From NCBI GenBank assembly GCA_000091205.1, contig AP006497.2: a stretch of 64,000 nucleotides of DNA. One strand, written 5' to 3'. Position numbers and translations under genes: made by a program. Origin of the DNA: Cyanidioschyzon merolae. Taxonomy: Eukaryota. Shown piece by piece: positions 5,635 to 36,111 of the stretch (position 1 is its first letter; each line of letters begins with the position of its first letter). The notes under the pieces were generated by a model. It was not told the origin of the DNA and searched no databases. It worked only from the letters and a program-made list of their open reading frames with translations.

Positions 5635-6153
5635 CAAGGTGCTGCCTCGTGCGACACGCTGAACCGATCCTCCGTTGATCAGCGTACACAGGGACGTTCC
5701 TCAGTGGATGCTTGTACACCTCTGCTTCGAAGAACGCAGACACCCAAAGCTTCGTGACTCGTTTCAAGGTGCTGCCTCGTGCGACACGCTGAACCGATCC
5801 TCCGTTGATCAGCGTACACAGGGACGTTCCTCAGTGGATGCTTGTAGACCTCTGCTTAGAAGAAAGCAGACACTCAAAGCTTCGTGACTCGTTTCAAGGT
5901 GCTGCCTCGTGCGACACGCTGAACCGATCCTCCGTTGATCAGCGTACACAGGGACGTTCCTCAGTGGATGCTTGTAGACCTCTGCTTAGAAGAAAGCAGA
6001 CACTCAAAGCTTCGTGACTCGTTTCAAGGTGCTGCCTCGTGCGACACGCTGAACCGATCCTCCGTTGATCAGCGTACACAGGGACGTTCCTCAGTGGATG
6101 CTTGTACACCTCTGCTTCGAAGAACGCAGACACCCAAAGCTTCGTGACTCGTT
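5635..6153. repeat. minisatellite: 130-bp unit x4 tandem array immediately upstream of SelO gene
   Basis: Unit ggtgctgcctcgtgcgacacgctgaaccgatcc... starts at 5638, 5768, 5898 and 6028. Copies 1 and 4 share variant ...tgtacacctctgcttcgaagaacgcagacaccc..., while copies 2 and 3 share ...tgtagacctctgcttagaagaaagcagacactc... (A-B-B-A). The track's four staggered identical 70-aa ORFs (MISVHRDVPQWMLV...) are artefacts of this array. Confidence 0.95.
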
Positions 6154-6300
6154 TCTTTGCAACGTAGAGGCGTTCGACGGAAAGCAACTCACAGCTCAGG
6201 AAACGTTGCCCCGCCGCAAGCAGCGCGGCGCAACGGCATCCTCAGACGCAAGGCGTCGGGACTCGGAAACCAAAAATGTTGTTGGTTCGAGAACTCGACT

Positions 6301-8316
6301 ATGACTTTTTGGGCCTGGATTGCGCTCACGGGACACAGCGGAATTCATTCGAGGTCGAGTCTGAGAACGCTCCCACGAGAGACAGCGCGAGTACGTAGGG
6401 TGCTGTGGCGGTTGTCGCCTGAACACCCACATCTCGGGCGCAGTGTGTTTACACCATCCCGTACCACGGCGCGTCCGTCAGAAGCGCGTGAGCGACTACC
6501 GCGTAGCGCTTTGCCACACCTCCGCTCAAACTACTCCTTACCTGAAACAGCGATGCTCGGGAGCGGTACTGGACACGGAAGTTCTGATGGAAAGGGAGCA
6601 CCACTACCAGCAACGACGACGACGACGACACACCAGAGTGACGAGCGCCTGCTCACACTCGACGAACTAGTGCTGAGTGCGGGGTTCGCCAGTCGTCTAC
6701 CCGCGGACCCGGAAACTGCAAACTACGTCCGCGTAGTGCGCGGTGCGGCACTTTCGTTTGTGCACCCGTCACCGACCTGGACGGAGCCGGTGCTTGCTGT
6801 CTGGTCAGACAGGTGTGCGCGTGCTTGTCTTGACCTCGAGGTGAGGCCCTCAGAGCGAGACTATGCAGCACGTGTGTTCAGTGGCCTCGCGATGTTGCCC
6901 GGATCGCGACCCTATGCGCAGCGCTACGGCGGACACCAGTTTGGCGTCTGGGCAGGTCAGCTTGGCGACGGTCGTGTCATTGTGTTGGGTGAGTACCAGA
7001 ATCGATGCGGCGAGACCTGGACCTTGCAGCTGAAAGGCGCAGGCAAGACGCCGTTTGCTCGTTTCGCTGACGGGCGCGCTGTCTTGCGCAGCAGCGTGCG
7101 AGAGTTTCTCGCCAGTGAAGCGCTACATGCGCTGGGCATCCCTACCAGTCGTGCGTTGTCCCTTGTGGTCACTGGTGACAAAGTCGTGCGGGACATGTTC
7201 TACGACGGCAATCCACGCGAGGAGCCTGGCGCTGTCGTTTGCCGTCTAGCTCCTTCATGGGTGCGGTTCGGAACGTTTGAATTGGCAACGGACTGGAATG
7301 AGCTGGAGCTTCTTCGACAGCTTGCGGACGATACGATTGTACACCACTACCCGGCATTGCTGGCACATGAGCGTTCTCACGGCAAGCGCACATCCGCAGA
7401 CTCGAGCCGCAGCGCAAGAAATGAAGAGTCCCAGAACCCAATGCCGTATCGAGCGCTTTTACTCCAAGTCGCTGAACGAACAGCTGCGCTAGTTGCCGGC
7501 TGGCAAAGCGTCGGTTTCGTACACGGAGTCTTGAACACCGACAATATGAGTATTCTGGGGATCACCATAGACTATGGTCCGTTCGGCTTCCTGGACGCTT
7601 ACATGCCCGAGTACACGCCGAATACCACAGATCTTCCGGGTCGACGCTATTGTTATGCGTTACAGCCGACCATCTGTTTGTGGAATCTGCTTCAACTAGT
7701 GCGTGCATTCGAGCCGCTCACTGGTACTAATCTCTCGGAGGAAGTGAGTCAGACCTACGAGACCAAGTTTCGCGAAGAGATGTCCGCACGCCTGCGAGCC
7801 AAACTCGGTTTCCAAACCTGGAACTCGGATGCAGATAATGGACTTGTGCGGGACCTGTATGAGCTCATGCGTCAGGATCGAGCGGATTTTACACGCACCT
7901 GGCGAGCGCTGTCCTGGTTAGAGCCCGTTGCTTGTCTACAGAAAAGCGACGCCTCGCTCGAGCCGCTGCTTCGCGTACTCCCAGAGCCGGTTCGAAAGAA
8001 TCCGGACCGACTTGAAGCTTGGCGACTTTGGGTGCAACGTTACGCAGAGCGTACGCTGGCCGAAGACAACTTTGATGGGACTGCACGGCGCAAGCAAATG
8101 CAAGCCGCGTCTCCCAAGTACATTCTACGGAATTACATGGCTCAGGTGGCAATTGAAAAGGCGGAAAATGAACAGGATTTTTCGGAAATCGAGCGACTGC
8201 TCAAGTTACTCGAACATCCGTACGCAGAACAGCCCGAAATGGAGGCACTCTACGATCGGGAGCCACCGACATGGTCCCAGCGCCTTGGAGTGTGCATGAA
8301 CAGCTGCTCTTCCTAA
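6301..8316 (+). CDS. SELENOO: protein adenylyltransferase SelO (UPF0061/YdiU family), Cys-containing form
   Basis: Strong SelO hallmarks: FASRLPADPE, YQNRCGETWTLQLKGAGKTPFARFADGRAVLRSSVREFLASEALHALGIPTSRALSLVVTG, GVLNTDNMSILGITIDYGPFGFLD. Track ORF starts at TTG 6157 inside the tandem array; the first in-frame ATG is 6301 (MTFWAW..., Arg/Ser-rich N-terminus plausible as mitochondrial presequence), and an alternative ATG lies at ~6553 (MLGSGTG). C-terminus ...CMNSCSS-stop places Cys at the antepenultimate position, where vertebrate SelO has Sec; the codon is TGC and the stop is TAA. Confidence 0.85.
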   Translation: MTFWAWIALTGHSGIHSRSSLRTLPRETARVRRVLWRLSPEHPHLGRSVFTPSRTTARPSEARERLPRSALPHLRSNYSLPETAMLGSGTGHGSSDGKGAPLPATTTTTTHQSDERLLTLDELVLSAGFASRLPADPETANYVRVVRGAALSFVHPSPTWTEPVLAVWSDRCARACLDLEVRPSERDYAARVFSGLAMLPGSRPYAQRYGGHQFGVWAGQLGDGRVIVLGEYQNRCGETWTLQLKGAGKTPFARFADGRAVLRSSVREFLASEALHALGIPTSRALSLVVTGDKVVRDMFYDGNPREEPGAVVCRLAPSWVRFGTFELATDWNELELLRQLADDTIVHHYPALLAHERSHGKRTSADSSRSARNEESQNPMPYRALLLQVAERTAALVAGWQSVGFVHGVLNTDNMSILGITIDYGPFGFLDAYMPEYTPNTTDLPGRRYCYALQPTICLWNLLQLVRAFEPLTGTNLSEEVSQTYETKFREEMSARLRAKLGFQTWNSDADNGLVRDLYELMRQDRADFTRTWRALSWLEPVACLQKSDASLEPLLRVLPEPVRKNPDRLEAWRLWVQRYAERTLAEDNFDGTARRKQMQAASPKYILRNYMAQVAIEKAENEQDFSEIERLLKLLEHPYAEQPEMEALYDREPPTWSQRLGVCMNSCSS

Positions 8317-9427
8317 CAAATTAGGCGAAAAGGTGAGGTGTCTGGTTCGTGTACCCGATCGCATGGATAGACATCCACGGATGCCTATTGAAGCACCTGT
8401 AGGAATACTCCTACGAATACCTGCGCGGATACGGCTATGGACACAGGCATGTTCATGGGTGGCAATGGTTGAAGTGCACGATTCGTGCTGGAAACTGCCT
8501 GCAACCTGTCACGTTCACAGTGTGTTGTTGCAACTTGTTTCGCATGCGTCGCCAATGCCGCGTCCCGAGTTTTCTTTTTGTAAAGAACCGCTTTCACCGA
8601 ATACGGTTGGATGCGAATCTTGATGCTCTGGTGGATCATACGCCAGAGACTAGTGGGACCGCTGCAACTGTATATATTCTCAGGACGGCGCTGTTCGTCG
8701 ATCGCGTTTCCAGACACCACACCCGAGCAGTCCATATGATCAGTTCGCATCTATGGGTTCGCCCCGGAGACGCAACGCGGGAGACGTCTTTGCACCCGAT
8801 CCCATGGGTGAATCTGCATCCACCGAGAAAACCGAGTTGAGCGCTTACCTCGTACCGTTTAGGCGATCGCTTTTGAGATCCGATGCTAGCGGGGGTCGGG
8901 GTATCCGCTGACCTTTCTACGACTGGATGCCAGCGCTATGCAGCCTGAACCTCGTCGGAGCTGCTGCTTCGATCGCCATATGAAAACGTGAGATTCGATT
9001 CGTGCAAAGCCAACAAAGAGTCCATATGCAGAATACAAACTTTTCCTTCAGCAAAAGCAGCCTCTTGCAAGTAAGGATCTACGCGAGGTTTGTGGTGTAG
9101 GACCCGTACCTCATTCGCGCTGGGGCGTCTAGAGTGCTGGGGGTCTCCGAGGTGCCCCCGCTGCACGCTCCTGCCCTGCCGCCTGCGCTAAACAACACCT
9201 TTCATATACTGGGCACTCGCGCTCTCTCTACAGGTCCTTCGCTTCATTCATCAGCAAATATCCGCCTGAACGTTTGCCGGCACTGCAACACCAGACTTGG
9301 ATAACTGCATTCAATGAAAGAGTGACGCTCTTTTTCCAACGTAGAGCGCCACCAACCTACAACCGCGTCCTAACCTGCAGCTGTTGCAAGACGCCCTAAC
9401 GAGAGCATCTTCTGTACCGAACAATTT

Positions 9428-9850
9428 CCATACCAGTGCTGCTCCCTAAGCGCTATCCTAACCCAGCGCACAGTGTCTTGAACGGTTTTGTGGTACGCAC
9501 TCGGAAACAGTTGGCGTACCAGTGCTGCTCCCTAAGCGCTACCCTAACCCAGCGCACAGTGTCGTTAACGGTTTTGTGGTACGCACTCGGAAACAGTTGG
9601 CGTACCAGTACTGCTCCCTAAGCGCTACCCTAACCCAGCGCACAGTGTCGTTAACGGTTTTGTGGTACGCACTCGGAAACAGTTGGCGTACCAGTACTGC
9701 TCCCTAAGCGCTACCCTAACCCAGCGCACAGTGTCGTTAACGGTTTTGTGGTACGTACTCGGAAACAGTTGGCGTACCAGTACTGCTCCCTAAGCGCTAT
9801 CCTAACCCAGCGCACAGTGTTGTTAACGGTTTTGTGGTACGTACTCGGAA
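9428..9850. repeat. minisatellite: 86-bp unit x ~4.9 tandem array in 5' flank of peptidase gene
   Basis: Unit ccagtgctgctccctaagcgctaccctaacccagcgcacagtgtcgttaacggttttgtggtacgcactcggaaacagttggcgta repeats at 9433, 9519, 9605, 9691 and 9777. Track ORFs 9436.. and 9522.. (identical 61 aa, GTG starts) and the 5' end of ORF 9748.. are generated by it. Confidence 0.95.
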
Positions 9851-9942
9851 ACGCTCCAGTGGCCGCGTCAGCGTTCGCTGTCCACCTGTGTGCCAGCCCG
9901 TTCAACGAGTGCAGTTCTCTTTTTGAAGATAGAGGCTTCTTT

Positions 9943-11946
9943 ATGCTTCTATTCCAGTCTACACTGGTTCGAGTTTATGTTGTCCGGAGCCCGCCTCGCA
10001 ACCGACAACTGTGTCTCCGCGCTGACTCGAGTCAAGGACGACACCTCCTGGGAGCACGACCTGCACAGCAGACGACGACGACGACAACAACCACTACAAC
10101 TACAACTGCTGCGGCGTCGAGACCGATAACCAAGCTAACAGTATTGCGAGTACAGCAGCGTTTCTGGGAGCGCCATGGAAGCGCTCCAGCGCTGGCTTGT
10201 TCGCAGAGCCCGTTGCAGCCGCACCTGGGCGTCGGTGCAGAGGCTTGCACCCGGCAACGAATCTCAGACCTCAAGCCGAGCGTCGGTGAGCGCCTCCATT
10301 CAGCCTATTATACACGATTGCGGCAAGCTGTGGCGGTAGTTAGAAACTGGGTTTGTGTTGCAAGCGCGCTTCTCTTTGTCTACCTGAGTACCAGCGACCA
10401 GGTGGCCCTGGCGGCTGCCTCACTCGCCAATGGCATGCCTCAAGACCGTCTGGCTCTGGCAACGAGTACGCCCGTTCCAGATCGCTACCGAATTCTTTGG
10501 GAGCAGGCACTGGACATCATCACGAACCTTCACTACCAACCCGGTCAACATATCCATGCAGCCTCGTTAACCATGCCTTCGCACTTGCCGCCTACGCGTG
10601 CGTCCACGATCCCATGGGGATGCTCTCTGGGAACACGTGCCTCGACCTACGATGCCATTCGGATCCGACTCAGTGAATTGAATGATCCCTACTCACGTTT
10701 CCTGGAGCCGGATGAATTTGAGGCGGAACTGAATCCTTACCGGCGAGCTCGGAAGCTCAGCGGGGTCGGCATCATACCGGAGCGCAGTCCAAAAGGCCAC
10801 GGCACGCTGCGCGTTATAGCCGTTATTCCCGAGTCACCGGCTGAGGAGGCCGGAATCAACCCCGGCGATGAACTCGTTATGATTGACGATATTGTCGTCG
10901 AGCCTTCACCTTTGAACCCGATTCCTGTGACCCCCGATGAAGCGTTGGCGTTGCTGCGCGGCCCAGCGGGTACGCGGGTTCGTCTCACTGTGCGACAAAC
11001 GACAAACTCGTTGTCGTACGCTGATGCATCGCTGCAAGTAGCGTCAGCGTCCACAGCGCCGACCTCTATGATGCGTACATATACATTAACGCGGAGACCG
11101 CTTCTGGTAGCTCCGGCTGTCTACGGCCTTGTCGCCGCGGAGCCCACTTTCGGTTACATTCGCCTCCATACCTTCAACGCCGAAGCGACACGTATCGTCT
11201 TCGAGGCTCTGAACGCATTCAAGAATTCTAGCGATCGTTCGGCAGCGGCTGGTGTTATCCTAGACCTGCGCAACTGCCGAGGTGGCGTCTTCCAGGAAGC
11301 ACTGGTGATTGCTTCGATGTTCATCGCAAACCCCGATGCCGTACTCGTCTACACCGTCGACAGTCGGGGTATCGAGCGCGCACACCGGGTGCGTGACCAG
11401 TGGAACGGTTGGCCTGAAGCTCCTGCTGCCGCTGCTCGTACTCCTCGTACTCCTCCTGAGACGCTCGGGAGCGCGGCGTCGGCCCGGCATCCGCTGTACA
11501 ATGGCCCACTGGTGGTGCTCGTCAATGGTGCCTCAGCTTCCAGTAGCGAAGTGCTTGCGATAGCCTTGCGCGATCACGGACGAGCAGTGCTGTTGGGCAT
11601 GCCAACTTTTGGGAAAGCCCGCATCCAACACTACTTCCCGCTTTTGGACGGCTCGGCGATCGCGCTCACTGTCGGGGAGTTTCTCGGCCCGCAGCACGAA
11701 CGCCTCGCGGACCACGTCGGCTTAGTGCCGCAGGTCTCCTGCAACGCTGCACCCCGGAACTTTGCGCTCCTAGAGAGACACACGCCACCAGATGCCTGCA
11801 TCGCAGAGGCAGCTCAGCTGCTAAGCGAAGAACCCACGGGGTCATCGGCTACAGAGCCGGTGCCGGTCGGTGGCTCCGTGCGGTCTGCGTTCACATCCCG
11901 AAGCAGGTCCACTGAAACGACACTGTTGCCTCGGATCCAAACCTGA
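9943..11946 (+). CDS. C-terminal processing peptidase (S41 family, CtpA/tail-specific protease-like) with PDZ domain
   Basis: DPYSRFLEPDEFEA motif, PDZ (GVGIIPERSPKGHGTLRVIAVIPESPAEEAGINPGDELVMIDDIVV) and S41 catalytic region (VILDLRNCRGGVFQEALVIASMFI ... GMPTFGKARIQHYF). Track start 9748 is GTG inside the tandem repeat. The first in-frame ATG is 9943 (MLLFQ...); the next is ~10432, after a hydrophobic segment (WVCVASALLFVYLSTS), so the start is uncertain. ACN-repeat encodes T12. Confidence 0.8.
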   Translation: MLLFQSTLVRVYVVRSPPRNRQLCLRADSSQGRHLLGARPAQQTTTTTTTTTTTTAAASRPITKLTVLRVQQRFWERHGSAPALACSQSPLQPHLGVGAEACTRQRISDLKPSVGERLHSAYYTRLRQAVAVVRNWVCVASALLFVYLSTSDQVALAAASLANGMPQDRLALATSTPVPDRYRILWEQALDIITNLHYQPGQHIHAASLTMPSHLPPTRASTIPWGCSLGTRASTYDAIRIRLSELNDPYSRFLEPDEFEAELNPYRRARKLSGVGIIPERSPKGHGTLRVIAVIPESPAEEAGINPGDELVMIDDIVVEPSPLNPIPVTPDEALALLRGPAGTRVRLTVRQTTNSLSYADASLQVASASTAPTSMMRTYTLTRRPLLVAPAVYGLVAAEPTFGYIRLHTFNAEATRIVFEALNAFKNSSDRSAAAGVILDLRNCRGGVFQEALVIASMFIANPDAVLVYTVDSRGIERAHRVRDQWNGWPEAPAAAARTPRTPPETLGSAASARHPLYNGPLVVLVNGASASSSEVLAIALRDHGRAVLLGMPTFGKARIQHYFPLLDGSAIALTVGEFLGPQHERLADHVGLVPQVSCNAAPRNFALLERHTPPDACIAEAAQLLSEEPTGSSATEPVPVGGSVRSAFTSRSRSTETTLLPRIQT

Positions 11947-12116
11947 CCGAGTTGCGCACCCGTTCGGCAGTCTAGAGCATCCGACAGCACCAGGTTCGCG
12001 TAGTGATCAAAACCGCTGAGTTTTCCGCGCACGCACCTGTTCGCGTTCAGGTACACTTGGACGGAATGAAACAGCAACGCTTCGAGTTCCGCAGTATCGA
12101 CCTCGTCTTTTGCCAT
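11814..12116 (-). CDS. Sm-like protein (SmG/LSm7-like)
   Basis: 100-aa ORF with a genuine ATG (cat at 12114-12116). Sm1 motif VRGKLSGFDHYANLVLSDALD and Sm2 motif LGQVWIRGNSVVSVDLL; compare SmG ..GILRGFDPFMNLVIDE..IGMVVIRGNSI. The C-terminal 28 codons overlap the last ~44 codons of the convergent peptidase gene (11814-11946). Confidence 0.55.
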   Translation of the reverse strand: MAKDEVDTAELEALLFHSVQVYLNANRCVRGKLSGFDHYANLVLSDALDCRTGAQLGQVWIRGNSVVSVDLLRDVNADRTEPPTGTGSVADDPVGSSLSS

Positions 12117-13362
12117 AAACCAAGCTGATCAACAACCAACACGACGCTGGTCAAATGCTTGGACGCACGCGGGTTTCCCACAGCCTGCCAAGACGCCGTC
12201 GCAGGGTACCGGCAAACGCACTTGTGTGTATGTTGCTGAGTTGCGCGACGTTTCTGTGCATATCCGAAGCAGGAGCAGCAGTAGTTCCAGCCCAGGAAGC
12301 CTTTCGTTTCGACCTTTCAGGAACGTGTAGTGCGCACGTCGTTTTGACGAAAAGTCACCTTCCCTGCGATAACCGACGACTCAACCTGGACTGCAGGGTA
12401 AAGTCGTTGCAGCGCGTTCGGGTGTACGCGCGAGCTCCACGAGTCGCCAGTGAGTGCCTCGGCATACCTCGACCTCGACGGTGTTCGTTGAACCCAGAAC
12501 ACGAATTCGGGAGCTTGGTTGCCTCAAGGCGAAAGCGAGCGACAGGCACTTCTCGGAGTCTGTGGGTGTTTCTGGTGCCTATCCCAGTCTGTGGCCGGAG
12601 TGTGTCCGTTCGTCCAGTTCAAGCGGAGGTGTACCGAGTGTCTTGAGCAGCGTGCGGACGTCTGGGTGTCACGGTGGCTCTCTGTGGTGCGTCCTGCCTT
12701 CACGGGCGTGATTCAGACTGCACCCGCGAGCATGCGCTACTCACTCGTGCTGCAAACGCCCGCCACCTGCGCAGTGTTGCAGGCGAGAGACAGCGGAACC
12801 TACCGCTATGCGACTTGGCGTTAGGTGCGTAGGTATATGCGTTTATGCGACGGAAGCAACGTTGTTGTCGAGTACCTGCCCGCGGGTTATCTGGGACCGT
12901 GTTGAGATTCACGTTTACGCATTCTCTATATATGCTGCCTTTAGATGAAGCTGCCGCCTAGCCTAGCCAAGCGCATCTCTTCCTAGGCACCAGAACCCGC
13001 TCTGGTCCAAGATATGCACGCGTATCCATTCCCGGCTTTTTGGTGACGCTCAGGGAGTATTCCTTGTCCGGCTGGGTATGCCACTACTTGATCAGCGCTT
13101 TCAAAAGCAGATGCCAGCCCCGCGCACCAGCGCGTCCAGCGTTTACATTACAGGCTTGCACACCGCCGCTACCCGCTGGTATCATACGCCGGTTTGTCTT
13201 CATCGTGAAGCTCTTCGTTCCACGACTTGCTCTACCAGAGTCTCCGATGCCGCGGTAGCATGTCTGGGAATGCTCTACCTCCGGCAAACGCACACACACT
13301 CACTCCTTCACAACAACAACAACAACAACCAATGGGAATCGAACAAGGCACAGATGCACGCC

Positions 13363-16300: not shown

Positions 16301-16674
16301 TGTGCTGTTCGGGTGTCCTGGAAGCCCTCGTGTCCGATGTTACTCCGCGACACGAGGCCGCTGAGTAGGAGCACCGGCACAGAGTCCGCAAGCGCATCCA
16401 CCATGCCGCACACGGTGTAGGCGGCACCCGGACCCGAGGTGGTAACGCACACACCCAGCTTCCGATAATACTTGGCGTATGCAGATGCGGCAAACGGTGC
16501 GGCAGTTTCGTTTCGAACGAGAACCCAGTGCAGACGTGGATGCTGCACAATCGCTGTGATAAGAGGACTCGCAGCTGCTCCGTGTCCACCGAACACGAGC
16601 TCCACGTTTGCCGCCGCAAGCCGGTCTGCAATCAGGTTCGCAATGGTGTACGTGCTACCACGACTCGCTGGCAT
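13363..16674 (-). CDS. thiamine-diphosphate-dependent enzyme (acetolactate synthase / 2-hydroxyacyl-CoA lyase superfamily) fused to an EF-hand and a ~400-aa C-terminal domain of unknown function
   Basis: N-terminal Pyr domain (GVCVTTSGPGAAYTVCGMVDALADSVPVLLLSG...GFQD) and C-terminal TPP-binding GDG...N motif (VYLITGDGGFEMAEQELGTALQQGLDNLVVIVLRNGVMG). A canonical EF-hand loop (DLDNDGLISPEEM) follows ~60 aa later, then ~400 aa with no recognisable domain, all in one uninterrupted 1103-codon frame. Track start 16695 is TTG; the first ATG gives MPASRGSTYTIANL at 16674. Confidence 0.8.
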   Translation of the reverse strand: MPASRGSTYTIANLIADRLAAANVELVFGGHGAAASPLITAIVQHPRLHWVLVRNETAAPFAASAYAKYYRKLGVCVTTSGPGAAYTVCGMVDALADSVPVLLLSGLVSRSNIGHEGFQDTRTAQLMHGAGVQFAKAPMTADRFLSLLDSAIRFALERSTAAHLAIPVDVQTSPSDESALARLPFHIAEVPRCAAVSVEHAGRLLLGHRVVILCGLRAAQARCSSTILKLAETLCAPVITTLDAKGAVDEHHPLVLGVDGIFGNPGMAAPRALVSTAECILAIGVDRCDPVVLDSTGQQQVRVFGVDDTLATRLQVYYHVECMLIDPELEALLSALTASVREMQSKRMLPPGPQQARDYSSRLWKYFLDGEWRERQASLPSSPRRAAVLSKTPHAMVTGRRSMLDTDDTADEGDDEVRGFCHPRHLLTALSAKLGPDDVVVVDIGDVTIWAGLCLCFDGQGTRLLSSINMGSMGYAVPAAVSMGVSLKRRKSEGVVYLITGDGGFEMAEQELGTALQQGLDNLVVIVLRNGVMGRVRFGNTGVAGDEIILPDLQRLAQAYRMGFARVQRPAEAPAALESALAAQQRGDARHSFLIDLVESPELKAEYATVESNRVPVLRLIAEYLPTEALTASDMELLSIFDLDNDGLISPEEMRIARQVFDSFIMVHRQRQRMDAESAGETEDVAASAALSTEDREYLLQLLRSGDFFGCIASQKLLVEPLESSPDSNQSPVKVYNLHPHAPQPPGSRARALGSVRNLIEGKIPSVEALSRIPIDSQDYIAGFELGTVDGRPPETMGEAIIVHGTAYCTLTGELPAATSPATSDGTSNQQQSPAEAPEAPPAEYYRTVRGRYLSSVAFLGMPQGAVPDFYVSYEAPGVQLPTGVQGTNAGSKKIPAGLPWSRVLNDLYLQTGTTNPLFFYGIAEFSHFTATAISRAPVFNENVIANRHKYYREPNLITGSQPAAVVGLLSVAEAIEDEAFRTALDAHLYRGYFQLYADRDTVDASPEQQTPQDGHVADQGDHSCHTCRLMALQRIRSELQQHPSLLLSHTHALALRRPVQHLGDIEPDVVWRAVHLLANSCVTKVHMSVHVVRGLDALESGT

Positions 16675-17861
16675 CTTGGAGGTGGTACTATTCAATGCTT
16701 CAGCACGCGCCCAGTCAAGTTCTTGGTGCTGGTCGAGCGTCTGTCTCTGGAGTTACCGCTTGTGTGAGGCGTTACGGGTAGCCTGCGGTGGCAACTTGAT
16801 CGAACCGTGCGCTCTCTGAGCAAAGCCTCCACTGGATACCTTCGGGCAACGCGAGCTGAGCGAAATGCAGCCACAAACTATCGTCTACGAACTTTGAAGC
16901 GACTCTGAGATAGGACCTAGCGACGCAGTTCACCCTGAAAAGTCGATGTTCGGTTGCGAGCAGGCAGAGCAGCTTGTTCAGTCTGATACGTCAGCAACTG
17001 CCTCTCTGGAATACACCTTTTATTGGCAGCGCTCCCTGATTATAAACACTGTTTGCAATCACCTCTCCAGATTTATGGGATGCACTCGTCACACTGGTTC
17101 TGTGGAGTCGCGTTCAGGCCGGTGCGCCAACAAGTGCCTCCCTGGACCAAACCGGTTATTGAGGGTGCTCGCCGATGAAACACACCGTTCGCAGTCGCTT
17201 TTCCAGATCTATAAGATGCACTTGTCAAACCTGTTCCCTCGAGTCGCGTTTCGCGCTGTGGCACTCCCTCGAGGAGGCAAGTGGTTGCGTAGGACACGAG
17301 GCCGCCTGCCGGTCGTTGCAACGTCTGGTACCCCGAGCGCGATACGATGCGTCTCGCGTGGCTCTGGAGCCGTGTGGAGCACCCGCCACCCAGCGACTGT
17401 GAGGCCGAAAGCCCAGCGATGCAGATCATCAGGAGTGCCGCTCAACCGGGATCATCGAACTTCATCTGATTCCGCTTCAGCTCAGTTAACTCCAATGAAT
17501 TCCAGTTTATCTCTTCTGACCTCATTCCATCTCAAATGATCCCACTCGTTGGGATAGCAAGGACGCTTGGTAATTTTGCAGGGTACGCATCAGGAATATA
17601 AGAGCTATCATGAATACTCATCACGAGAGGCACTTGGCGCTGGGAGAGTCCCACGAACGAATGAAAGGATCACCGGAGGCAAGTATAGGTCATGGCGAGT
17701 GGTCAGCAGAACGCTCGGGAGAGATCGTGAGGCGTCATCACGACTGCCTGCCCGGAAACCGATACGCGTCGTGCAGTTGGGAATCCCTGTTTGCTCTACG
17801 CGATGCAACGTCATGGTTATCCATCGAGGGTGGCGCTCGGGCTGGTCTACTGGAGCGCGTG

Positions 17862-17884
17862 CACGCACGCACACACACACACAC
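17862..17884. repeat. (CA)n microsatellite
   Basis: gcacgcacacacacacacacac in the divergent intergenic region. Confidence 0.9.
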
Positions 17885-18206
17885 TTCGCAGTTTACCGCC
17901 TGATGATCATCGCCCAGGTACACCGTCAACCATCTACGTAGCGTGCACTTGCATCCGATTTCTTTCGTTTCCATACCCCATGACGCCTTTTCGAATGCAT
18001 TCTGCATCGACAACGACGAGCACACGAGTGACTGCAGCTGACGTTTCTCGCTTCCTATAACCCGAAACGCTCGGCAACGACGCATCTCTCGAGAGCATCG
18101 CCCGCAGCCTCGGAGCATCGCAGAGGACCTGATTGCATGCAACGATGCTAGTCCATAAACCGATGGAAAAGAATTGACCCTGTGTATGGGAGCATCTGCA
18201 GCTTGC

Positions 18207-18437
18207 AGCTCATATCCATCACAAGCATCTGTACGAACACCACCGGGTTGACTGCCACACGAAGCTCTCGGGGGTGCGCGGGCAGCTCATATCCATCACA
18301 AGCATCTGTACGAACACCACCGGGTTGACTGCCACACGAAGCTCTCGGGGGTGCGCGGGCAGCTCATATCCATCACAAGCATCTGTACGAACACCACCGG
18401 GTTGACTGCCACACGAAGCGCTCGGGGGTGCGCGGGC
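18207..18437. repeat. minisatellite: 77-bp unit x3, ~200 bp upstream of ALDH start
   Basis: Unit agctcatatccatcacaagcatctgtacgaacaccaccgggttgactgccacacgaagctctcgggggtgcgcgggc at 18207, 18284 and 18361. Confidence 0.95.
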
Positions 18438-18640
18438 GCTCGCGCTTTGCGTCCCGATCCGGCTGTGTGAAGCGAGGCGCTCGCGGGCGATACGCACGAC
18501 TGCCGAGTGTATCTCGACGGCTCGGGTGAGCGCGTGGAGCACTGTCGACCGCAGGTGACCATCGGGTGCAGCTTAGACCTGGTCAAAGTGTACGACGCAT
18601 ATACTCCATTACGCGTAGCGGTTGACGCTGACGGAATAAG

Positions 18641-20245
18641 ATGCTGACGTCAGCAGCTGACGACTTGTCGTCGGGATATCGGGAGGTAAGGGCGGAGCTG
18701 GGCGAAGCCTTTCGGAGTGGGGCAACACGCTCGCTTCGTTGGCGTGCAGCGCAGCTGGAAGCCCTGAAGCAGGCGCTAGTGGAACAGGAGCGCGCAATCA
18801 TCGCGGCATTAGCTGATGATCTCGGGAAGAGTGCTGAAGAGAGTCAGCTTACCGAGCTACAACCCGCACTCCAGGAACTAGCGTTGGCGCTGGGGAACCT
18901 GAAGCTCTGGGCTGGGCCCCGCACGGTAGAACCCTGCTTAGCACCCAAGTATCTGGCGCCGTGGTTCTGGTTGCAACGTGTTTGGCGCGCGGTGCTTCCT
19001 CGAGTACTGGGCGGTGGCAACCCGCCGGTGGCAAGTTACGGCGGCGTAGCACTGGCGACGATACTGGAGCGTCGCTGGGTCGTTCCTGAACCACTGGGCG
19101 TGGTGCTGATCATCACAGCCTGGAACTATCCTCTACTGCTTGCGATTTGGCATATGACAAGTGCTATCGCCGCTGGGAACTGTGTCGTCTTGAAACCAAG
19201 TGAACGTGCTCCTGCAACAGCAAAACTGCTGGCAGAGCTGGTGCGCACCTATCTCGATGCTCGCTGCATCCGAGTCGTGCTGGGCGATGCCAGCACTGTT
19301 CGGCGTCTGCTTCATCTGGATACCGAGTGTCCGGCGGATGTTGCGTTCCGCGTTTGGGCACAGCAGCGCCCTTTTGATGCGGTGCATTTCACGGGCGGCT
19401 GGAGGATTGGGCGTGAAATCGCACGCGCTTGTGCGGCCTACCTGATACCGTGCACGCTCGAACTGGGCGGTAAGAATCCGCTTGTGGTGGACTGTGCATC
19501 GCTGTCCGAGCGAGACTTGGCTCGGGTTGCCCGAACGACCGCATGGGCCAAGTTACTGAACGTGGGTCAGACGTGCATCGCCCCGGATTATGTGGTTCTA
19601 TGCGGTGCAGACCGGGCACAGGAGGCGTTCTTCATAGAAGAGATGTGGAAATCGATTGAAGCATTCTACGGGAGGCCAGTGGAAAACAGCACGACCTTCC
19701 CACGGATCGTGAGCAAGGCACATACCGCCCGTCTGGCGGACCTGCTCCAACAAAGCCGTGGTGAGGTTGTGTTCGGTGGAACCCACCGAGAGAATGACTG
19801 CTTTTTCACGCCGACCATTGTGCGCAATGTGACTCTGGATGATGCGCTGATGGCGGAGGAGATTTTCGGGCCGATACTGGTTGTTCTGCAGCCGTGTGCT
19901 GGTACCGAACAAGCGCTCGAGGTGATCGGGAGTCTACCATCTCCGCTGGTAGTCTATCTAATGTCTCGTGACGCTGCTGTGGTGCAGCGTTTTGAACGGG
20001 CATCCACCTCTGGATCGCTTGTCGTGAATGATCTGCTGGGTCAGGTAATCTCGCCGGGTCTTCCGTTTGGCGGGGTCGGCGCTTCTGGATACGGCAAGTC
20101 CAAAGGTCAAGCGGGGTTCGATGCGTTCTCGAACCTCAAGAGTGTCCTCTGCAAACCGATATGGATAGAGCGAATAGCGAGTGATCGCTACCATCCACTA
20201 ACCGCTACCAAGATCAGTCGTTTTCGTCGCTTAATCGCGCTCTGA
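18641..20245 (+). CDS. aldehyde dehydrogenase, ALDH3 family (fatty-aldehyde-dehydrogenase-like)
   Basis: ATG start. ALDH3-type motifs: LIITAWNYPLLLAIWHMTSAIAAGNCVVLKPSE, TLELGGKNP, catalytic Cys in LLNVGQTCIAPDYVVL (compare ALDH3A1 MNSGQTCVAPDYIL), EIFGPILVV. 534 aa. Confidence 0.9.
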   Translation: MLTSAADDLSSGYREVRAELGEAFRSGATRSLRWRAAQLEALKQALVEQERAIIAALADDLGKSAEESQLTELQPALQELALALGNLKLWAGPRTVEPCLAPKYLAPWFWLQRVWRAVLPRVLGGGNPPVASYGGVALATILERRWVVPEPLGVVLIITAWNYPLLLAIWHMTSAIAAGNCVVLKPSERAPATAKLLAELVRTYLDARCIRVVLGDASTVRRLLHLDTECPADVAFRVWAQQRPFDAVHFTGGWRIGREIARACAAYLIPCTLELGGKNPLVVDCASLSERDLARVARTTAWAKLLNVGQTCIAPDYVVLCGADRAQEAFFIEEMWKSIEAFYGRPVENSTTFPRIVSKAHTARLADLLQQSRGEVVFGGTHRENDCFFTPTIVRNVTLDDALMAEEIFGPILVVLQPCAGTEQALEVIGSLPSPLVVYLMSRDAAVVQRFERASTSGSLVVNDLLGQVISPGLPFGGVGASGYGKSKGQAGFDAFSNLKSVLCKPIWIERIASDRYHPLTATKISRFRRLIAL

Positions 20246-21019
20246 GACTCGAGCGCGGACTCGCGGTAAACACGCGATGTGCTCAGGATACGTCCGAGAG
20301 CGCCCGAATGTTTTCGTCGGTGGACAATATCGGGGACCTTGGTGGATGGAAACGGGTGCATTGACAAATCGAGCTACACGTATCGCCGCGGCATCGATTC
20401 TGAATCGTTTGGGCTGCACTGCGGCCATCGGGTCGTTACGTTGTGCGAAATACCGGTGTGTATGGCGTCGATGACGGACTACCGCGTCGCTTAGGGCGTA
20501 TTCGAAGACGGTCTGTTCTGATGCGCCACTGGCATCCGGTCTTGCGGTGTCGTTCCAGCGGGAGCACTTCGAGCGCCATCTAGCGTTTCACGCGAGCTGC
20601 ACCGCATGCTTCCTCATCCTATCGTCCATGCAGCGTTTACGCATTCTTCCGAAACTGTTGCTGCTGCGCTGCTGAATGCCATTTTCGTGAGACGACGCTG
20701 TGGGTATCGCGCACCGCTCCACCCGTGTCGGATGAAAATGGAAGCCTGAACTGCTGGCGCCTTGCCTGCTTATCGGTTTTTTCCCGATTGCACATAGATC
20801 TACAACCTTGACGTTCGATATGCAGCAATCAGGGTATACGATTGCATTTGTAGTTTGAGGATTCTCGGTCGTTTTTTTTCGGAGACGCTCCTTCGACGCT
20901 TTGCCGCTGCCGTTGGTGACGTCGTCGCCATCACGATGATTCTCGACGCGTTCGAACGAGACTTTTTAAATTCAATGACGTCTTTGTCGAATTCATATGT
21001 GCAAGCCTCGACTTGTCTC

Positions 21020-21235
21020 GTTTTCTCGCGCATGCGATAATCAAATCAAACATGCTATCAGTTTTCGATTCTTCTGTTCCTGTGCAACTCATGGGTGCAG
21101 CAATTCGCGCCGATGAACTGACGACGAAGAAAAAGTCGACGCTGTCCCATGGTCACTTGTTCACAAGCTCTTGCCAACGGTTCACTGAAGTGTTCATGTC
21201 AAAAAATCGATTCCGTTTGAAAGAAAAATCCTCTT
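21020..21235 (-). repeat. dispersed repeat family 1, copy B (inverted)
   Basis: Reverse complement of 21206-21223 is CTTTCAAACGGAATCGAT. Flanks align with copies A and C (…catgaacacttcagtgaacc…, aattgctgcacccatgagttgc…, gcatgtttgatttga…). Confidence 0.6.
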
Positions 21236-21525
21236 CTCAATGTAACCATTGACGGAGCTGCGTTCAACATCCATAGGATATCTCTAACGGGATTCGCAGG
21301 TAAAGAATCCGGTCCTTCGGACTTGTATGTAAGCTGGTGCAGAACATGAGTCATCGCGGTGATCGCTTGCAGTCGAGTGTGCATCATCGCTTTTGAGCGA
21401 AGGGTGCGCCAACGGATCGAAAGTCCTCGACGTGTTCCCCAGCCGTGAATTGCAGTTCGGTACTAGATTCATCACGATTCACATCGTGCGCCATGCATGC
21501 TTTACCGAATGGCATAGCGTTCTGT

Positions 21526-22467
21526 TTACACATGCAACCTGAAGAGCATGCGCAGAGCGCGCTCGCCCAGGAGCAGCACGTCATTGCAGGAGACGGCTCT
21601 GGGCATGGAAACGGAGCAAGGCATGGTAGGGAGCCCTCTGGATCCGTCAAGGGCATGTAACGAGCGATGAAGCGAGCCTTGACGTGCTGCAGGACGGCGC
21701 TCGAAAGATGAAGAGGTGTGTTGGATACATAAGTGCACTTGACAGCATGCACATGTTACCGCTTTGAAGCGCGCACCGGGCTCTACACAAAAGGAAACGA
21801 AAACGACAAGCGAAGCGTAACGCAACTTTCGTCTGTGTATAAAATGCGCCGTTGACAGCAACCGGAATCGGGGAAAGCGGAGCTTGAACGCCTCCAGCAA
21901 CATGCTTCGACTGCTGACAACGGAGCTTGAGGAAAACCCGAAACCAATGTATTCAGACCTTGATCTATGAGAGCACGAAAAGGAAGCACTCACAGCACAG
22001 TCCCGCAACATCTGGTTTTGATGACAGCCGCAAGAGCCCTCGACTTGCGTGCATACGCCCGAGATCGCCGCGTGCACCTCTTCCAAGTTCACGCTGACAC
22101 AGGCGTCGTCTAGGTGCTCGAGGACGGCATTGCTCTGCCCGCAAGCCGCATGCCCATGCAGTGCATACAAGCTCTTCCAAATCGTCACCTGTACGTAAAA
22201 ACAATACCAGCATTTCTCTATGGAGATTACGGTCACTATCGTTTCCGAGGCAAGTGCGTTGTCTCCATCTGCAGGAACGCTGGGGGCGCTCCCTTCTGGC
22301 TGCTCGATCGCTCGCCTCGCCCGGTGCGGGAAACTTATACCGGCCGCTTTGGCAACCAGCGGCGCGAGCGCAGCCCAACGTCGCCGCTGGCGTTGCGCTT
22401 GCTGCTGGTCAGGCCTGGAACTACTTCCAGGCAGCGGCACGAACCTCCGGGCGCCTGCAGAAGACAC
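21526..22467 (-). CDS. long ORF of uncertain coding status (313 codons), divergent from FA2H
   Basis: No domain similarity and several overlapping ORFs on the + strand; length alone is somewhat beyond typical random ORFs for this GC content. Low confidence. Confidence 0.15.
   Translation of the reverse strand: MSSAGARRFVPLPGSSSRPDQQQAQRQRRRWAALAPLVAKAAGISFPHRARRAIEQPEGSAPSVPADGDNALASETIVTVISIEKCWYCFYVQVTIWKSLYALHGHAACGQSNAVLEHLDDACVSVNLEEVHAAISGVCTQVEGSCGCHQNQMLRDCAVSASFSCSHRSRSEYIGFGFSSSSVVSSRSMLLEAFKLRFPRFRLLSTAHFIHRRKLRYASLVVFVSFCVEPGARFKAVTCACCQVHLCIQHTSSSFERRPAARQGSLHRSLHALDGSRGLPTMPCSVSMPRAVSCNDVLLLGERALRMLFRLHV
21815..21930. repeat. dispersed repeat family 2, copy X (~115 bp)
   Basis: ~75% identity to 63740-63850: shared gcttcgactgctgacaac(g/a)g core plus upstream gtgt..a.atg/ttacg.cgttgacagc...gg(g)aaagc blocks. 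Confidence 0.5.
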
Positions 22468-22798
22468 GCATCACTATCGTTCGTCTTCGTAAGTCTTTTA
22501 TTGGATATAAAGGCATCAGATCAGGCGTGCGCAGGTGATTACTGTACATAACGGCCATATGTGATGCTGGTGCGCGCACGCGTTTTTCCAGCAGCGCTCC
22601 TTCGCCGCCGTTTGACGATACCGGCCGCTGACGGGCGCGACACGTGTCCACAAGCGCTCAGGGAGCGCGTGTCCATACGACCTGGCGGTGCCGATTTACA
22701 GGGCGCGCGTTCATGCTGCGGCAGGTGAGAGCGCTTTAGAACAATCCTCGTGTGCTGCGTCCGAGGTCCTGCGTTCGAGTCGTGGACAGCGTGCGTCA

Positions 22799-23797
22799 AT
22801 GACAGAGTGCTACACACTAACACGGCGCGTAGTCCGTGCACACAACCATGAAAACGACGCCTGGGTGATCGTTCGTGGTGGTGTCTATGACGTGACGGGG
22901 TTCTTGCGGTACCACCCGGGCGGGCGGGACGTCCTCTTGAAGCGTTTGGGCGAGGACGTCACCAGTGTTATGAACGGCGAGCTCAAAGGTGGTCACGAGC
23001 ACTCCAGTGCGGCGTATAAAATTCTGCAGCAGTACTACGTAGGCCCGCTGGCTGACGCGGACGCTTCTCCCGCAGAGGCAGCCGCCCTAGACGGCACGCT
23101 GGACGAGCACGGTAGACCGCTGGTCGACTTTAGTAAGCCGCTTCTGGACCAGGTTGGTAAGCTTGGGGATAAGTATCACCGCTGGGTGCATTCTTTTCCG
23201 ACCAGCGACCATCATGTGGCCCTTTTCGCGAACCCGACGCTCGAGTCACTGACAAAGTGTCCCTGGTACGTGCCGCTAGTGTTCTGGATTCCGATCTTTG
23301 TCTGCGGGCTGTGGTTTGTGTTTGCGCGCCTCGGTTGCTCGTTTGTTCGAGATTTCCTACCGTTCACGACGTTTGGCTATATATTTTGGATGTTCTTCGA
23401 ATATCTGTTACATCGATATGTATTTCACGTGCGGACCGGGACGTACTGGTCGAATATCTTTCATTTTCTTATTCATGGACATCACCACCTGGCGCCGATG
23501 GATTATGATCGACTCGTGTTTCCACCGATTCCCGCAGCGCTCGTCTCGATGCCGGTATGGCTGACTGCACCTCGAGTGTTTGGTCTCGTGCGCGGACTGT
23601 GCTTCCTTTTTGGATTCGGTGTTGGGTACCTTCAGTACGACATGACACACTTTCTGGTGCATTATGGAACGCTACGTACGGGGTTCTTAGCCGCTCAGAA
23701 ACGGCGGCACATGATACACCATTTCAAAGCACCAGGGGCGAATTTTGGTATCAGTGTTCCCGTGCTGGACATTGTGTTCGGGACATTGCACCGGTAA
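22799..23797 (+). CDS. FA2H: fatty acid 2-hydroxylase (FA2H/Scs7-like) with N-terminal cytochrome b5 domain
   Basis: Cytochrome b5 heme-binding region (HNHENDAWVIVRGGVYDVTGFLRYHPGG) followed by a multi-TM fatty-acid-hydroxylase domain with His boxes (HRYVFHV, HGHHHLAP, HMIHHF). Track start 22688 is GTG; the first ATG (MTECYTL) is at 22799, immediately before the b5 domain. Confidence 0.85.
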   Translation: MTECYTLTRRVVRAHNHENDAWVIVRGGVYDVTGFLRYHPGGRDVLLKRLGEDVTSVMNGELKGGHEHSSAAYKILQQYYVGPLADADASPAEAAALDGTLDEHGRPLVDFSKPLLDQVGKLGDKYHRWVHSFPTSDHHVALFANPTLESLTKCPWYVPLVFWIPIFVCGLWFVFARLGCSFVRDFLPFTTFGYIFWMFFEYLLHRYVFHVRTGTYWSNIFHFLIHGHHHLAPMDYDRLVFPPIPAALVSMPVWLTAPRVFGLVRGLCFLFGFGVGYLQYDMTHFLVHYGTLRTGFLAAQKRRHMIHHFKAPGANFGISVPVLDIVFGTLHR

Positions 23798-25984
23798 CAA
23801 CCACTGGTTTTCGCACACGCCTGCATGGACGAGCATGCCAACGAGAAGTGCGGTATTTCTGGACGGCGCGTCGAGCGCAGCGTGATGGATACCCACGGGC
23901 GGCTTGCGATGCTCGTATGGAGTCAAGCGTGCCTTGAAAGAGAGGTGTTTTTCTGGTTTGCTTGGTAACATCCATACGAAAACAAATTCATGATACAAAC
24001 GCACCTGAGTGTTAGATAGCTGATGAGCTGCTAGCAGACTGCTTTTGTATTCTTGCGAGCTGCGTTCCGCGCGGGCCCGTGCACCTGCACAGTAATTAGC
24101 CTCTCCTATGGGCGTGTGGTCCCCGCTCCACGTGCGACATACAGCCTGCGCGCTTTGGGCATTGCGGTTGCGGGTATCAGTTTGCTTGGTGGTGCCTGTC
24201 CGGAGACTTGCTTCTCGGGTATGGTGAGGTAACGCAGGTTTTCACCTGCTTCTGCCGCCGCTGTCGCACACCAAGGATGGACGCTACAATCACATCTTTG
24301 TAAAAGATTTGCTGTGCCCGATCACCGCGGACCTCGTTGACATGGTGCTTTGGAGTAATGACAGAGGAATCCACGCTGTTGTGGACGCCGGGTTCTGCAG
24401 CCCCTCCGAGCGCCTGCTGTTGGCCGGTCGCTGGAACGAACGCGCAGAAGCCGCTAGCCTTGGCGGGCCCATAGTTGGACAGCTTCTTGTCAGTCGATTC
24501 GTCGCTAAAGATGCCAGCATTCTCGAGTACGCGAGAACCTCGCATCGATATCCATGGGCGTTTATTACCGGCGACGATTCTGCTGAACAGGGCTGGTGGG
24601 ACTTGTTCCATGTCCCAGTATCGTACCACCAAACAGTTGAATTTCTCCTCGTACTGCTGTTCATGTGCAGATACAGCTCATTGACTCGGATGATCCAAGC
24701 AGATGTGCACCCGCGCGAGCACCTCGTGGAGTGGAAGAATAGGGGAAACCCCCAGCACATGTGCTCGCGACCCTATGTAAACCCGAGGGATGGGTGCAGC
24801 GATCGACGCTCTTCACCAGCGCCGAACGCTCCCTTGAACCTAGGATAAATACACAGCGGTGTTCAGAAGAGACTGGATCTGGGTTCTAGTGATTGATAGC
24901 GTCTCCGCACGCGTTCCATGCCAGCTCGTTTCCTCGGTGCGGTACGTGGAGAGAAGATCGCCACGATCGCTTGCAGTGGTGGTATCGGCGGCGCGCCTGC
25001 GGATAGACTCGGGTGAGGTCGCTGCGAAAAGCTCGAAAAGTCGCGCGTTGCTACCCGGCCCGTTGCCGCAATCCCGTACCGTGGTGTGAGACGTCGTCTA
25101 GACTCGTGTCAGAATCAAATGGAAGAGGTCCTTTTTTCGCGAAAACTAAGGTGTGCACGCTAAAATTTTGGTCTCTTTCCATTGTCATGAACAGAAGTCT
25201 TGTTGGCTTTTTCTGCAACTGCTTGCTGTTCCCCTCTCTGCTCCGTGGCTCTGAATACACCGCGATCTGCTCTGCCTTCAGCTCCGTTGTACGTTGTCGA
25301 AGGATATTGCTCGAAACGATCATGTCCCGATATCGCCATGTTCAGCTGTTGTCGACGCTTTACACACATAGAGAAATGTTACGATCCTCGCATTGCTTTC
25401 CATTTTCAATTTTGGTTGTATAGGGCACCGGTATGCGCTTCGCGGCGGTCGCATTTGGCCGTGGCCAGGTGCTCCCGGATGTTCAAGGATCCTCCTACTC
25501 CGCCTCCGAGCGCAGCCCCGTAACGCGTGAACTCTTGCATCAGCGCTCGGTACTTGTCACGGAGAGGAAAAGAAGGCCTCCGGCGATTTGCCCCTCAAGT
25601 GCGGCGCCCGGTGCCATAAACCACGTTCATGAGCGTATCCTAGTCGAACTCTTCGACGGGTACTCTGTCCGGTGCACTTGCAAGCGCACGTTATTCGCTT
25701 CGATGGAGCATTTGCGCATCGCGATCTTGTCGCTGGCGAAACAAACACCCGCAGGAAAATCCAGACATGAGCAGGACCCGAGCTGTTTCGATCGTTCAAT
25801 GCTCGCTTGATGCAAAGCGGTGTCGCACGCGCAGCTGGAAGCAGCTTCCGTGATGACTGGAGTCCGAGTTCATAATGCATTCCCATGAAAGCAGAACAGA
25901 TAAAAGCTTCTGGAGGCATGTCCCGTCAGCGATATTCTGCTGCTTCTAAGTTCGGTTTCGTAGAAAGCCAAAAAGACAGGAAGA

Positions 25985-26230
25985 AATATCTTTCAAACGG
26001 AATCGATGATTGAGCATGAAAAGTTTCACGAACATGCGGCATGAGCTTGAGAACAGGTAGTCAAGACCGATGTAGAGGTTTTTTGCTTTGCAAGCCCAGC
26101 GACCCCAATTGCTGCGCCCACAAACTGCCTCGAAACAGACAGGTCGAATACTTGGAAGATTCATGATTCGAGCATGCTCCACACAACGAAAGGAGAAGAG
26201 CGGATTCTCGCACATTTGAACTGGATCATG
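25985..26230 (+). repeat. dispersed repeat family 1, copy C
   Basis: CTTTCAAACGGAATCGAT at 25990-26007. Downstream gcatgaaaagtttcacgaaca, caattgctgcgcccacaaactgcctcgaaacagacaggtcga... align with copies A and B. Confidence 0.6.
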
Positions 26231-26491
26231 ATTTCTTTGATTTTACGAACCCTAGTTCTCGGATATCGCGACTCTTGTTGGTTCTGGTGACGTTCCGTTC
26301 TCCTGTACCAATGCATCGAAACAGGCACTCCGCGAACACGACAGAGAATACTAGGGAACTACGTATCAGTGCATAGGTCCTCATCATTACATGATGGAAG
26401 TCCAGGATGTCCTTCTATAAAGCTATGAAAACATTCTACTTGCAACAAAGAACACCCTGCTCCGTGTTCCATTTTAAACTGGCACAGTAGG

Positions 26492-26728
26492 AATACTAGC
26501 AAGCAATGGGATGCTTCTCGGCACCTTATAGCGCACCCGAGTACCTCACCTGCCATGATCCAGTCACCGCAATACTAGCAAGCAATAGGATGCTTCTCGG
26601 CACCTTATAGCGCACCCGAGTACCTCACCTGCCATGATCCAGTCACCGCAATACTAGCAAGCAATAGGATGCTTCTCGGCACCTTATAGCGCACCCGAGT
26701 ACCTCACCTGCCATGATCCAGTCACCGC
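26492..26728. repeat. minisatellite: 79-bp unit x3, ~150 bp upstream of MYSM1-like gene
   Basis: Unit aatactagcaagcaataggatgcttctcggcaccttatagcgcacccgagtacctcacctgccatgatccagtcaccgc at 26492, 26571 and 26650. Confidence 0.95.
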
Positions 26729-26768
26729 AACAGCGTCGTCGCTGCCCTGCGCGATGCTGCACCAAAGA

Positions 26769-26789
26769 GCGCGCGCGCGCGCGCGCGCG
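26769..26789. other. alternating (GC)10 tract (Z-DNA-prone) ~85 bp upstream of start codon
   Basis: gcgcgcgcgcgcgcgcgcgcg between the 79-bp array and ATG 26873. Confidence 0.9.
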
Positions 26790-26872
26790 GATCGCCTTAC
26801 TACTGCGCGCTCGCTTTTACCTAGACCCAAGGCGAAACTAGTGAGGTGTTCGCTGGGAGGCGAGATCGCCTT

Positions 26873-36045: not shown

Positions 36046-36046
<1 letters not shown>

Positions 36047-36109
<63 letters not shown>
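36047..36109. repeat. (CAG)21 perfect trinucleotide repeat
   Basis: 63 nt uninterrupted CAG, ~200 bp upstream (5') of the Josephin gene start and not in its reading frame (on that strand it reads CTG). Confidence 0.95.

Positions 36110-36111
<2 letters not shown>

Follow-up and report, generated by a model that had tools for sequence, protein, structure and literature searches.

The 64,000-nt stretch analyzed here, called the window throughout, is part of chromosome 15 of Cyanidioschyzon merolae 10D, a model alga with a genome described as exceptionally simple and poor in repeats. The open reading frames (ORFs) of the window are long, uninterrupted, and encode eukaryotic proteins, five of which are identical to C. 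merolae 10D entries. Within its spacers lie five tandem arrays, four of which an initial annotation had read as promoter-associated repeats that could tune expression by their copy number. Tandem Repeats Finder recovered all five where that annotation had placed them, and each array was then printed in register, copy by copy. We read them as minisatellites of local origin, very probably variable among strains and, on balance, near neutral. The arrays are as follows.

Positions 5635-6155: 130-bp minisatellite, 4.0 copies, 97% matches
Positions 9431-9852: 86-bp minisatellite, 4.9 copies, 97% matches
Positions 18205-18441: 77-bp minisatellite, 3.1 copies, 98% matches
Positions 26492-26730: 79-bp minisatellite, 3.0 copies, 99% matches
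Positions 30312-30510: 84-bp array, 2.4 copies

The genes that follow the first four arrays are listed next, with start codons set from homology and from the genes called in related contigs (numbered with the prefix L).

Positions 6301..8316, plus strand: SelO, 671 aa (Pfam SelO, E = 1e-120; ATG from a 671-aa gene call in L016)
Positions 9943..11946, plus strand: S41 (C-terminal processing) peptidase with PDZ domain, 667 aa (667-aa gene calls in L012-L014 and L016)
Positions 18641..20245, plus strand: aldehyde dehydrogenase (ALDH), identical to BAM81667.1 of C. merolae 10D
Positions 26873..28789, plus strand: Myb/SANT and JAB/MPN protein (MYSM1-like; Myb+JAB below), 638 aa (638-aa call in L022; orthologues align from residue 1)

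The 130-bp array occupies a divergent spacer, with a conserved minus-strand gene (~345 aa) on one side and SelO on the other, and its 3′ end lies 145 nt before the SelO ATG (6301). The 86-bp array, in the spacer between SelO and the peptidase gene, ends 90 nt before the peptidase ATG (9943); the 77-bp array, in the divergent spacer between the TPP-enzyme gene and ALDH, ends 199 nt before the ALDH ATG (18641); and the 79-bp array ends 142 nt before the Myb+JAB ATG (26873). With start codons set in this way, the gaps match the figures first given, and the fifth array lies away from gene starts as had been said: it sits mid-spacer, ~1.5 kb past the Myb+JAB stop codon (28789) and 1.9 kb before the photolyase ATG (32472). 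Since ALDH, the fatty-acid hydroxylase, Myb+JAB, and photolyase bear consecutive protein accession numbers, there is no annotated protein gene in the long array-bearing spacers between them. The gap that separates the 79-bp array from the Myb+JAB ATG also contains an alternating (GC)10.5 run (26769-26789), which counts 8.5 units in contig L022.

With head-to-tail periods of 77 to 130 bp, 2.4 to 4.9 copies, and 97 to 99% matches, the arrays belong to the minisatellites, whose head-to-tail units measure ~10 to 100+ bp. They are not satellite or centromeric DNA, being only 0.2 to 0.5 kb long, set amid housekeeping genes, and built of units each unique to its locus. Roughly one-third of the spacers of this region hold such a young minisatellite. 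The 84-bp array consists of two close copies and a third, diverged one, with which it extends over 30284-30535. In the 130-bp array the A-B-B-A order of variant copies noticed earlier is exact: copy 1 is identical to copy 4 and copy 2 to copy 3, and types A and B differ at four sites, all inside one 28-nt patch.

Copy number within the species was read as the span between flanking anchors in ~25 environmental contigs, which were gathered by a metagenome scan and look-ups and are roughly 99% identical to the 10D stretch. Individual environmental counts are lower bounds, since identical units may be passed over in short-read metagenome assemblies and a break at an array is common among the contigs. 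At the 130-, 86-, and 77-bp arrays, spans differ from that of 10D by exact multiples of the unit. The 130-bp unit, present four times in 10D, occurs once in L006, L008, and L011, which are exactly 390 bp (three units) shorter, and these single-copy alleles are mosaics of the A and B variants. For the 86-bp unit, 4.9 copies are found in 10D and L011, 2.9 in L006, and 1.9 in L008 and L016; L012-L014 start ~50 nt beyond the 3′ edge of this array and L015 slightly further in, so that none of them covers it. The 77-bp unit is present in 3.1 copies in 10D, 2.1 in six contigs (L006, L007, and L012-L015), and 1.1 in four (L008 and L016-L018), and its copy-number alleles are found on several flanking haplotypes of single-nucleotide polymorphisms (SNPs). 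As for the 79-bp array, 10D has 3.0 copies and L006 has three with different unit variants, while L008, whose contig ends within the array, has at least four; L022 starts within it. The 84-bp array has the same span in L022 as in 10D, and L023, L024, and L031 start within it. More generally, array alleles differ in their internal unit variants and flanking SNPs.

Copy number thus appears to vary by whole units among same-species contigs, as the comparison among isolates suggested at the outset would have it, and the arrays can be called variable-number tandem repeats (VNTRs), with the caveat that short reads may collapse identical units. Since one short-read contig (L011) resolves 4.9 copies of the 86-bp unit, complete assembly collapse is not the rule. 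Judging from these sequences, the polymorphism is very probably real.

Two observations belong beside this variation. One or other end of an environmental contig repeatedly falls at or within the 86-, 79-, and 84-bp arrays (L012-L015, L022-L024, and L031), and for this reason we regard minisatellites as a systematic cause of metagenome assembly breaks. A pure (CAG)21 microsatellite at 36047-36109, 201 nt upstream of the ATG of a Josephin (ataxin-3-like) gene and on the opposite strand, is likewise length polymorphic: environmental contigs have it with 15, 12, or 10 (interrupted) units.

The 130-bp and 77-bp units are present once, in place, in several contigs, and self-comparison revealed no dispersed or non-local copy of any unit in the 64-kb window; on both grounds the arrays are local duplications of unique DNA. 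Homology at the duplication junctions is 1 to 2 nt. In addition to the young arrays, the window holds two older tandem duplications that were missing from the initial list.

Positions 16976-17247: old tandem duplication of 136 bp, two copies, 72% identity, in the TPP/ALDH divergent spacer, 301 nt from the TPP-enzyme ATG
Positions 36746-36890: old partial tandem duplication, 92% identity, in which 52 nt recur at a spacing of 93 bp, lying 899 nt before the Josephin ATG

The first of these is present in two copies in all eight environmental contigs that span it, and the span of the second is unchanged in five.

Beyond the species, gene order is kept in Cyanidiococcus yangmingshanensis and in a sister species seen in metagenomes, here called species B, with ~63-78% protein identity. 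Their spacers cannot be aligned with those of 10D, apart from one block that turned out to be a probable RNA gene. Seven separate arrays occur in species B, their units unrelated in sequence to those of 10D, including the following.

L009, 6784-7095: 117-bp unit, 2.7 copies
L009, 11548-11703: 81-bp unit, 1.9 copies
L032, 7846-8083: 121-bp unit, 2.0 copies

Another species B array, with a 93-bp unit, is polymorphic (2.9 and 1.9 copies). Three of the seven end 173 to 250 nt before an ATG, one of them upstream of the Myb+JAB orthologue but with an unrelated unit, and the three listed above adjoin stop codons, lying 11 nt past one, 56 nt past another, and across the end of a third coding sequence; one of these stop-adjoining arrays fills most of a 435-bp convergent spacer. 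Cyanidiococcus has one array in 39 kb, again with an unrelated unit, and no array was found in 25 kb of the compact genome of Cyanidium caldarium. We also considered that arrays might recur in the same spacers across species, and rejected it: two spacers hold arrays in both 10D and species B, where a hand calculation expects ~1.85, so there is no excess.

Placement was tested by setting the position of each array against a model in which arrays fall uniformly over the spacers of the genome region concerned. Four of the five young arrays of 10D end at most 200 nt before the downstream ATG (90 to 199 nt), against 0.52 expected (P = 6e-4), a value that comes from the discovery set with a threshold picked afterwards. 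The replication set, which comprises the seven arrays of species B and the one of Cyanidiococcus, has two of eight within this distance against 1.73 expected (P = 0.55), and three of eight if the limit is raised to 250 nt (P = 0.35). The placement before gene starts that was noted initially is thus seen in the 10D arrays that prompted it but is not replicated in the relatives; three species B arrays lie at stop codons instead. When both gene ends are counted (at most 250 nt from an ATG or at most 60 nt from a stop codon), 10 of 15 arrays qualify against 3.7 expected (P = 5e-4), and in the replication set alone 6 of 8 against 2.6 (P = 0.017).

Two contigs, L001 and L002, share a start point 134 nt ahead of the ALDH ATG, and we asked whether these starts were transcript ends. 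The idea was dropped because the starts of other contigs range from 56 to 226 nt upstream and the samples consist of genomic DNA. According to a 2025 paper, no endogenous promoter of C. merolae has been characterized or dissected (PMC12770821).

Signs of function were sought in constraint, shared sequence, composition, RNA structure, and coding potential. 10D and the environmental contigs diverge by 0.3% at the first and second codon positions and by 0.85% at the third, by 1.08% in spacers, and by 1.16% over the last 200 nt upstream of ATGs. Because divergence there is at least that of third codon positions, no constraint on promoter-proximal DNA is visible at such a resolution. Unless assembly has collapsed them, the single-copy alleles of the 130-bp and 77-bp loci indicate that the arrays are dispensable. 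The GC content of the units (45 to 60%) is close to the window's own (49 to 60%), and hence there is no sign of a nucleosome-excluding composition.

The units also proved to have no common sequence, as had been remarked. Among 11 units from 10D and its relatives (three species), the longest word common to any two is 10 nt, ACTCGGAAAC, and shuffled sequences reach at least 10 nt in 85 of 200 trials, which is chance level. Extended by one letter, ACTCGGAAAC(C) is found on the plus strand in each 86-bp unit (9499-9852) and in the 84-bp array (30368-30461), as well as at 6261-6271, 30 to 40 nt before the SelO ATG, and at 9192-9201 of L004, in the matching spacer of species B. As a common motif it was rejected: the 10-nt match is at chance and looser matches, with one count per array, are not clearly enriched. 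The word CAACGTAGAG near two arrays was rejected on the same ground of chance level.

None of the units matches Rfam at gathering thresholds, and their folding z-scores (+0.05 to +1.03) are no better than those of shuffled sequences. RNA genes were rejected on these results, and so was slippage driven by hairpins, given that the units fold no better than shuffles. A coding repeat would need a period divisible by three, which 77, 79, 86, and 130 bp are not. The 84-bp unit does fit, and it lies inside a 212-codon ORF (30153-30791), which is unannotated and has no match in species B.

Several other features of the neighborhood deserve mention. The non-coding block at 22250-22480, on the minus strand between ALDH and the cytochrome b5/fatty-acid hydroxylase gene, is strongly conserved, with counterparts in Cyanidiococcus (L003, 4442-4672) and species B (L004, 2587-2816). 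The block matches signal recognition particle (SRP) RNA below threshold (RF00017, 27.8 bits, E = 3.5e-5, S domain), and from its sequence it is probably a 7SL RNA gene; a conserved TATA-like element stands upstream of this putative gene, on the minus strand near 22500. A 100-aa LSM-domain gene on the minus strand (~11814-12116) overlaps the last ~130 nt of the peptidase coding sequence, is called in related contigs, and is annotated in Cyanidiococcus.

The spacers of 10D themselves are large. Those at 16675-18640, 23798-26872, 28790-32471, 35847-39071, and 48687-56412 are 1.5 to 3.7 times the length of their orthologues in Cyanidiococcus and species B. The spacer before photolyase, for example, measures 3.7 kb against ~1 kb, and the one that separates the helicase gene from Sec7 measures 7.7 kb against 2.8 kb. 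This extra DNA holds no annotated gene, no dispersed repeat, and, by self-comparison, only two recognizable old duplications. Growth of spacers by decayed arrays was rejected, as a sensitive self-comparison yielded those two old duplications only, and for the same reason most of the extra spacer DNA is left without an explanation.

What keeps the arrays where they are? Were they promoter-associated repeats, they would be retained because copy number tunes expression of the downstream gene, through binding sites or the spacing of elements, and would supply heritable, reversible variants. The four 10D arrays that end 90 to 199 nt before an ATG agree with this, as do the three of seven species B arrays at 173 to 250 nt, including that of the Myb+JAB orthologue, and the apparent natural variation in copy number would be raw material for such a mechanism. 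However, the 5′ preference was not replicated (two of eight, P = 0.55), three species B arrays abut stop codons and one 10D array is mid-spacer, single-copy alleles occur in environmental contigs, no unit is conserved across species or carries a common motif, and neither the ordinary GC content of the units nor the constraint on promoter-proximal DNA stands out. We therefore consider this explanation unlikely, although tuning of expression by array copy number is possible; the sequence evidence supports only part of the claim that these are promoter repeats with tunable expression. The more distant alternative that the arrays are unannotated functional genes, either tandem small-RNA genes such as snoRNA clusters or protein-coding repeats, is very improbable. 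Units of 77 to 130 nt do resemble small RNAs in size, and the 84-bp unit is a multiple of three within a 212-codon ORF, but Rfam matches and excess folding stability are absent, the other four periods do not fit codons, no gene is annotated between the flanking genes, the ORF has no homologue in relatives, and the arrays, unlike the strongly conserved, probable SRP RNA gene in a neighboring spacer, are not conserved in the sister species.

The variation itself could be an artefact, with the arrays fixed at the 10D number and identical units skipped by assemblers. Many contigs start or stop at or inside arrays, 10D has the highest count at the 130-bp and 77-bp loci and ties for the highest at the 86-bp locus, and a path from flank through one unit to flank should be valid in a de Bruijn graph even where more copies exist. 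Yet the same counts recur across samples (two copies of the 77-bp unit in six contigs, one in four), alleles differ in internal unit variants and flanking SNPs, and one contig keeps 4.9 copies of the 86-bp unit and another at least four of the 79-bp unit, more than 10D. Moreover, the 63-bp CAG run, which a typical 150-nt short read would span if these samples were sequenced at such a length, also varies (21, 15, 12, and 10 units). Artefact is thus an improbable account of the differences as a whole. Mobile DNA, whether as transposable elements with internal tandem repeats or as the seed of satellites, would fit with 10D spacers being 1.5 to 3.7 times longer than those of Cyanidiococcus, which implies that extra DNA entered. 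It was rejected as an origin and is hardly credible in view of the lack of dispersed unit copies in the 64 kb searched, the single-copy state at the same site in other strains, and a C. merolae genome with only 0.7% transposable elements (PMC1955436).

We favor, as somewhat the likeliest account, that these are near-neutral, fast-turnover minisatellites of the VNTR type, whose placement near gene boundaries reflects duplication-prone sites. They are tandem, local in origin, and lacking in conservation and RNA structure. At birth, a unique spacer stretch of 77 to 130 bp would be duplicated head to tail with 1 to 2 nt of junction homology. Whole units would then be gained or lost by replication slippage, unequal exchange, or gene conversion, giving the one to five copies seen among strains. 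Birth and decay would both be quick, as no array is conserved in the sister species and the two old duplications have drifted to 72-92% identity. The placement at boundaries, for which we infer a mutational cause, would come from open chromatin at gene 5′ and 3′ ends, possibly with recombination hot spots, and not from selection. The effect of the arrays is most likely neutral or slight; any action they had on transcription would consist in multiplying or shifting upstream elements carried in the unit.

Several points weigh against this account. The copy numbers derive from short-read metagenome assemblies that are able to skip identical units, and at most loci the longest allele is that of 10D, a pattern that collapse would produce as well. 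Neutrality is argued from coarse divergence counts and an absence of conservation, and the gene-boundary criterion was picked after the data had been seen. Furthermore, the spacing of four of five 10D arrays at 90 to 199 nt before an ATG is tighter than expected under a purely neutral, uniform model and is as predicted for arrays with a regulatory role.

A bolder, combined reading, which we hold to be rather improbable, is that in the Cyanidioschyzon lineage open chromatin at gene starts and ends is a hot spot where minisatellites are steadily born from unique sequence and resized, perhaps in the sexual cycle, and that the upstream arrays so born may serve as copy-number dials of expression; the genome is nearly free of transposons and has few transcription factors. 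Such a cycle has now been reported for Cyanidiophyceae (PMC13353863). If this combined reading were true, such arrays would be a main source of regulatory variation among hot-spring populations.

Whatever their effect, the arrays have several uses. They are ready-made markers for typing natural Cyanidioschyzon populations, and they explain why metagenome contigs of C. merolae break at these sites. Cloned 10D "promoter fragments" may hold strain-specific duplications, such as the 130-bp unit that stands four times before SelO in 10D and once in three contigs. Homologous recombination works in C. merolae, which makes the loci directly amenable to tests for an effect of copy number on expression. 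Our literature searches returned nothing relevant on minisatellites or promoter repeats in C. merolae; an Ensembl track lists 3335 Tandem Repeats Finder features for the species, where tandem repeats are listed and not analyzed (PMC11050394).

Among known systems, the arrays invite comparison with three. Animal promoters harbor VNTRs or minisatellites, such as the INS VNTR and the MAOA upstream VNTR. Like these, the C. merolae arrays consist of head-to-tail units of tens of base pairs, placed within a few hundred bp ahead of the coding sequence, and they have interspersed variant units and an apparently polymorphic copy number. In contrast, the arrays of 10D have only two to five copies, of units larger than in most classical cases, and they duplicate local unique sequence whose single-copy alleles persist in the population.

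As Vinces and colleagues reportedly described in Science in 2009, unstable tandem repeats in yeast promoters confer transcriptional evolvability. The two cases share a compact genome, promoter-proximal repeats, and copy number that varies between strains, and it is this concept that the initial annotation drew on. However, the yeast repeats are mostly short in unit and AT-rich and act on nucleosome occupancy, whereas C. merolae units measure 77 to 130 bp with a GC content of 45 to 60%, and their 5′ enrichment is not replicated in relatives.

Minisatellites are also found at meiotic recombination hot spots, with instability in human and yeast, and plant hot spots lie at gene promoters and terminators. 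The arrays described here are similar in being near gene 5′ and 3′ ends and in their mosaic patterns, namely, the A-B-B-A order and the recombinant single-copy alleles, from which we infer that they might be linked to such hot spots. The C. merolae arrays are a further example of an already known kind of element, and their value is mainly practical.

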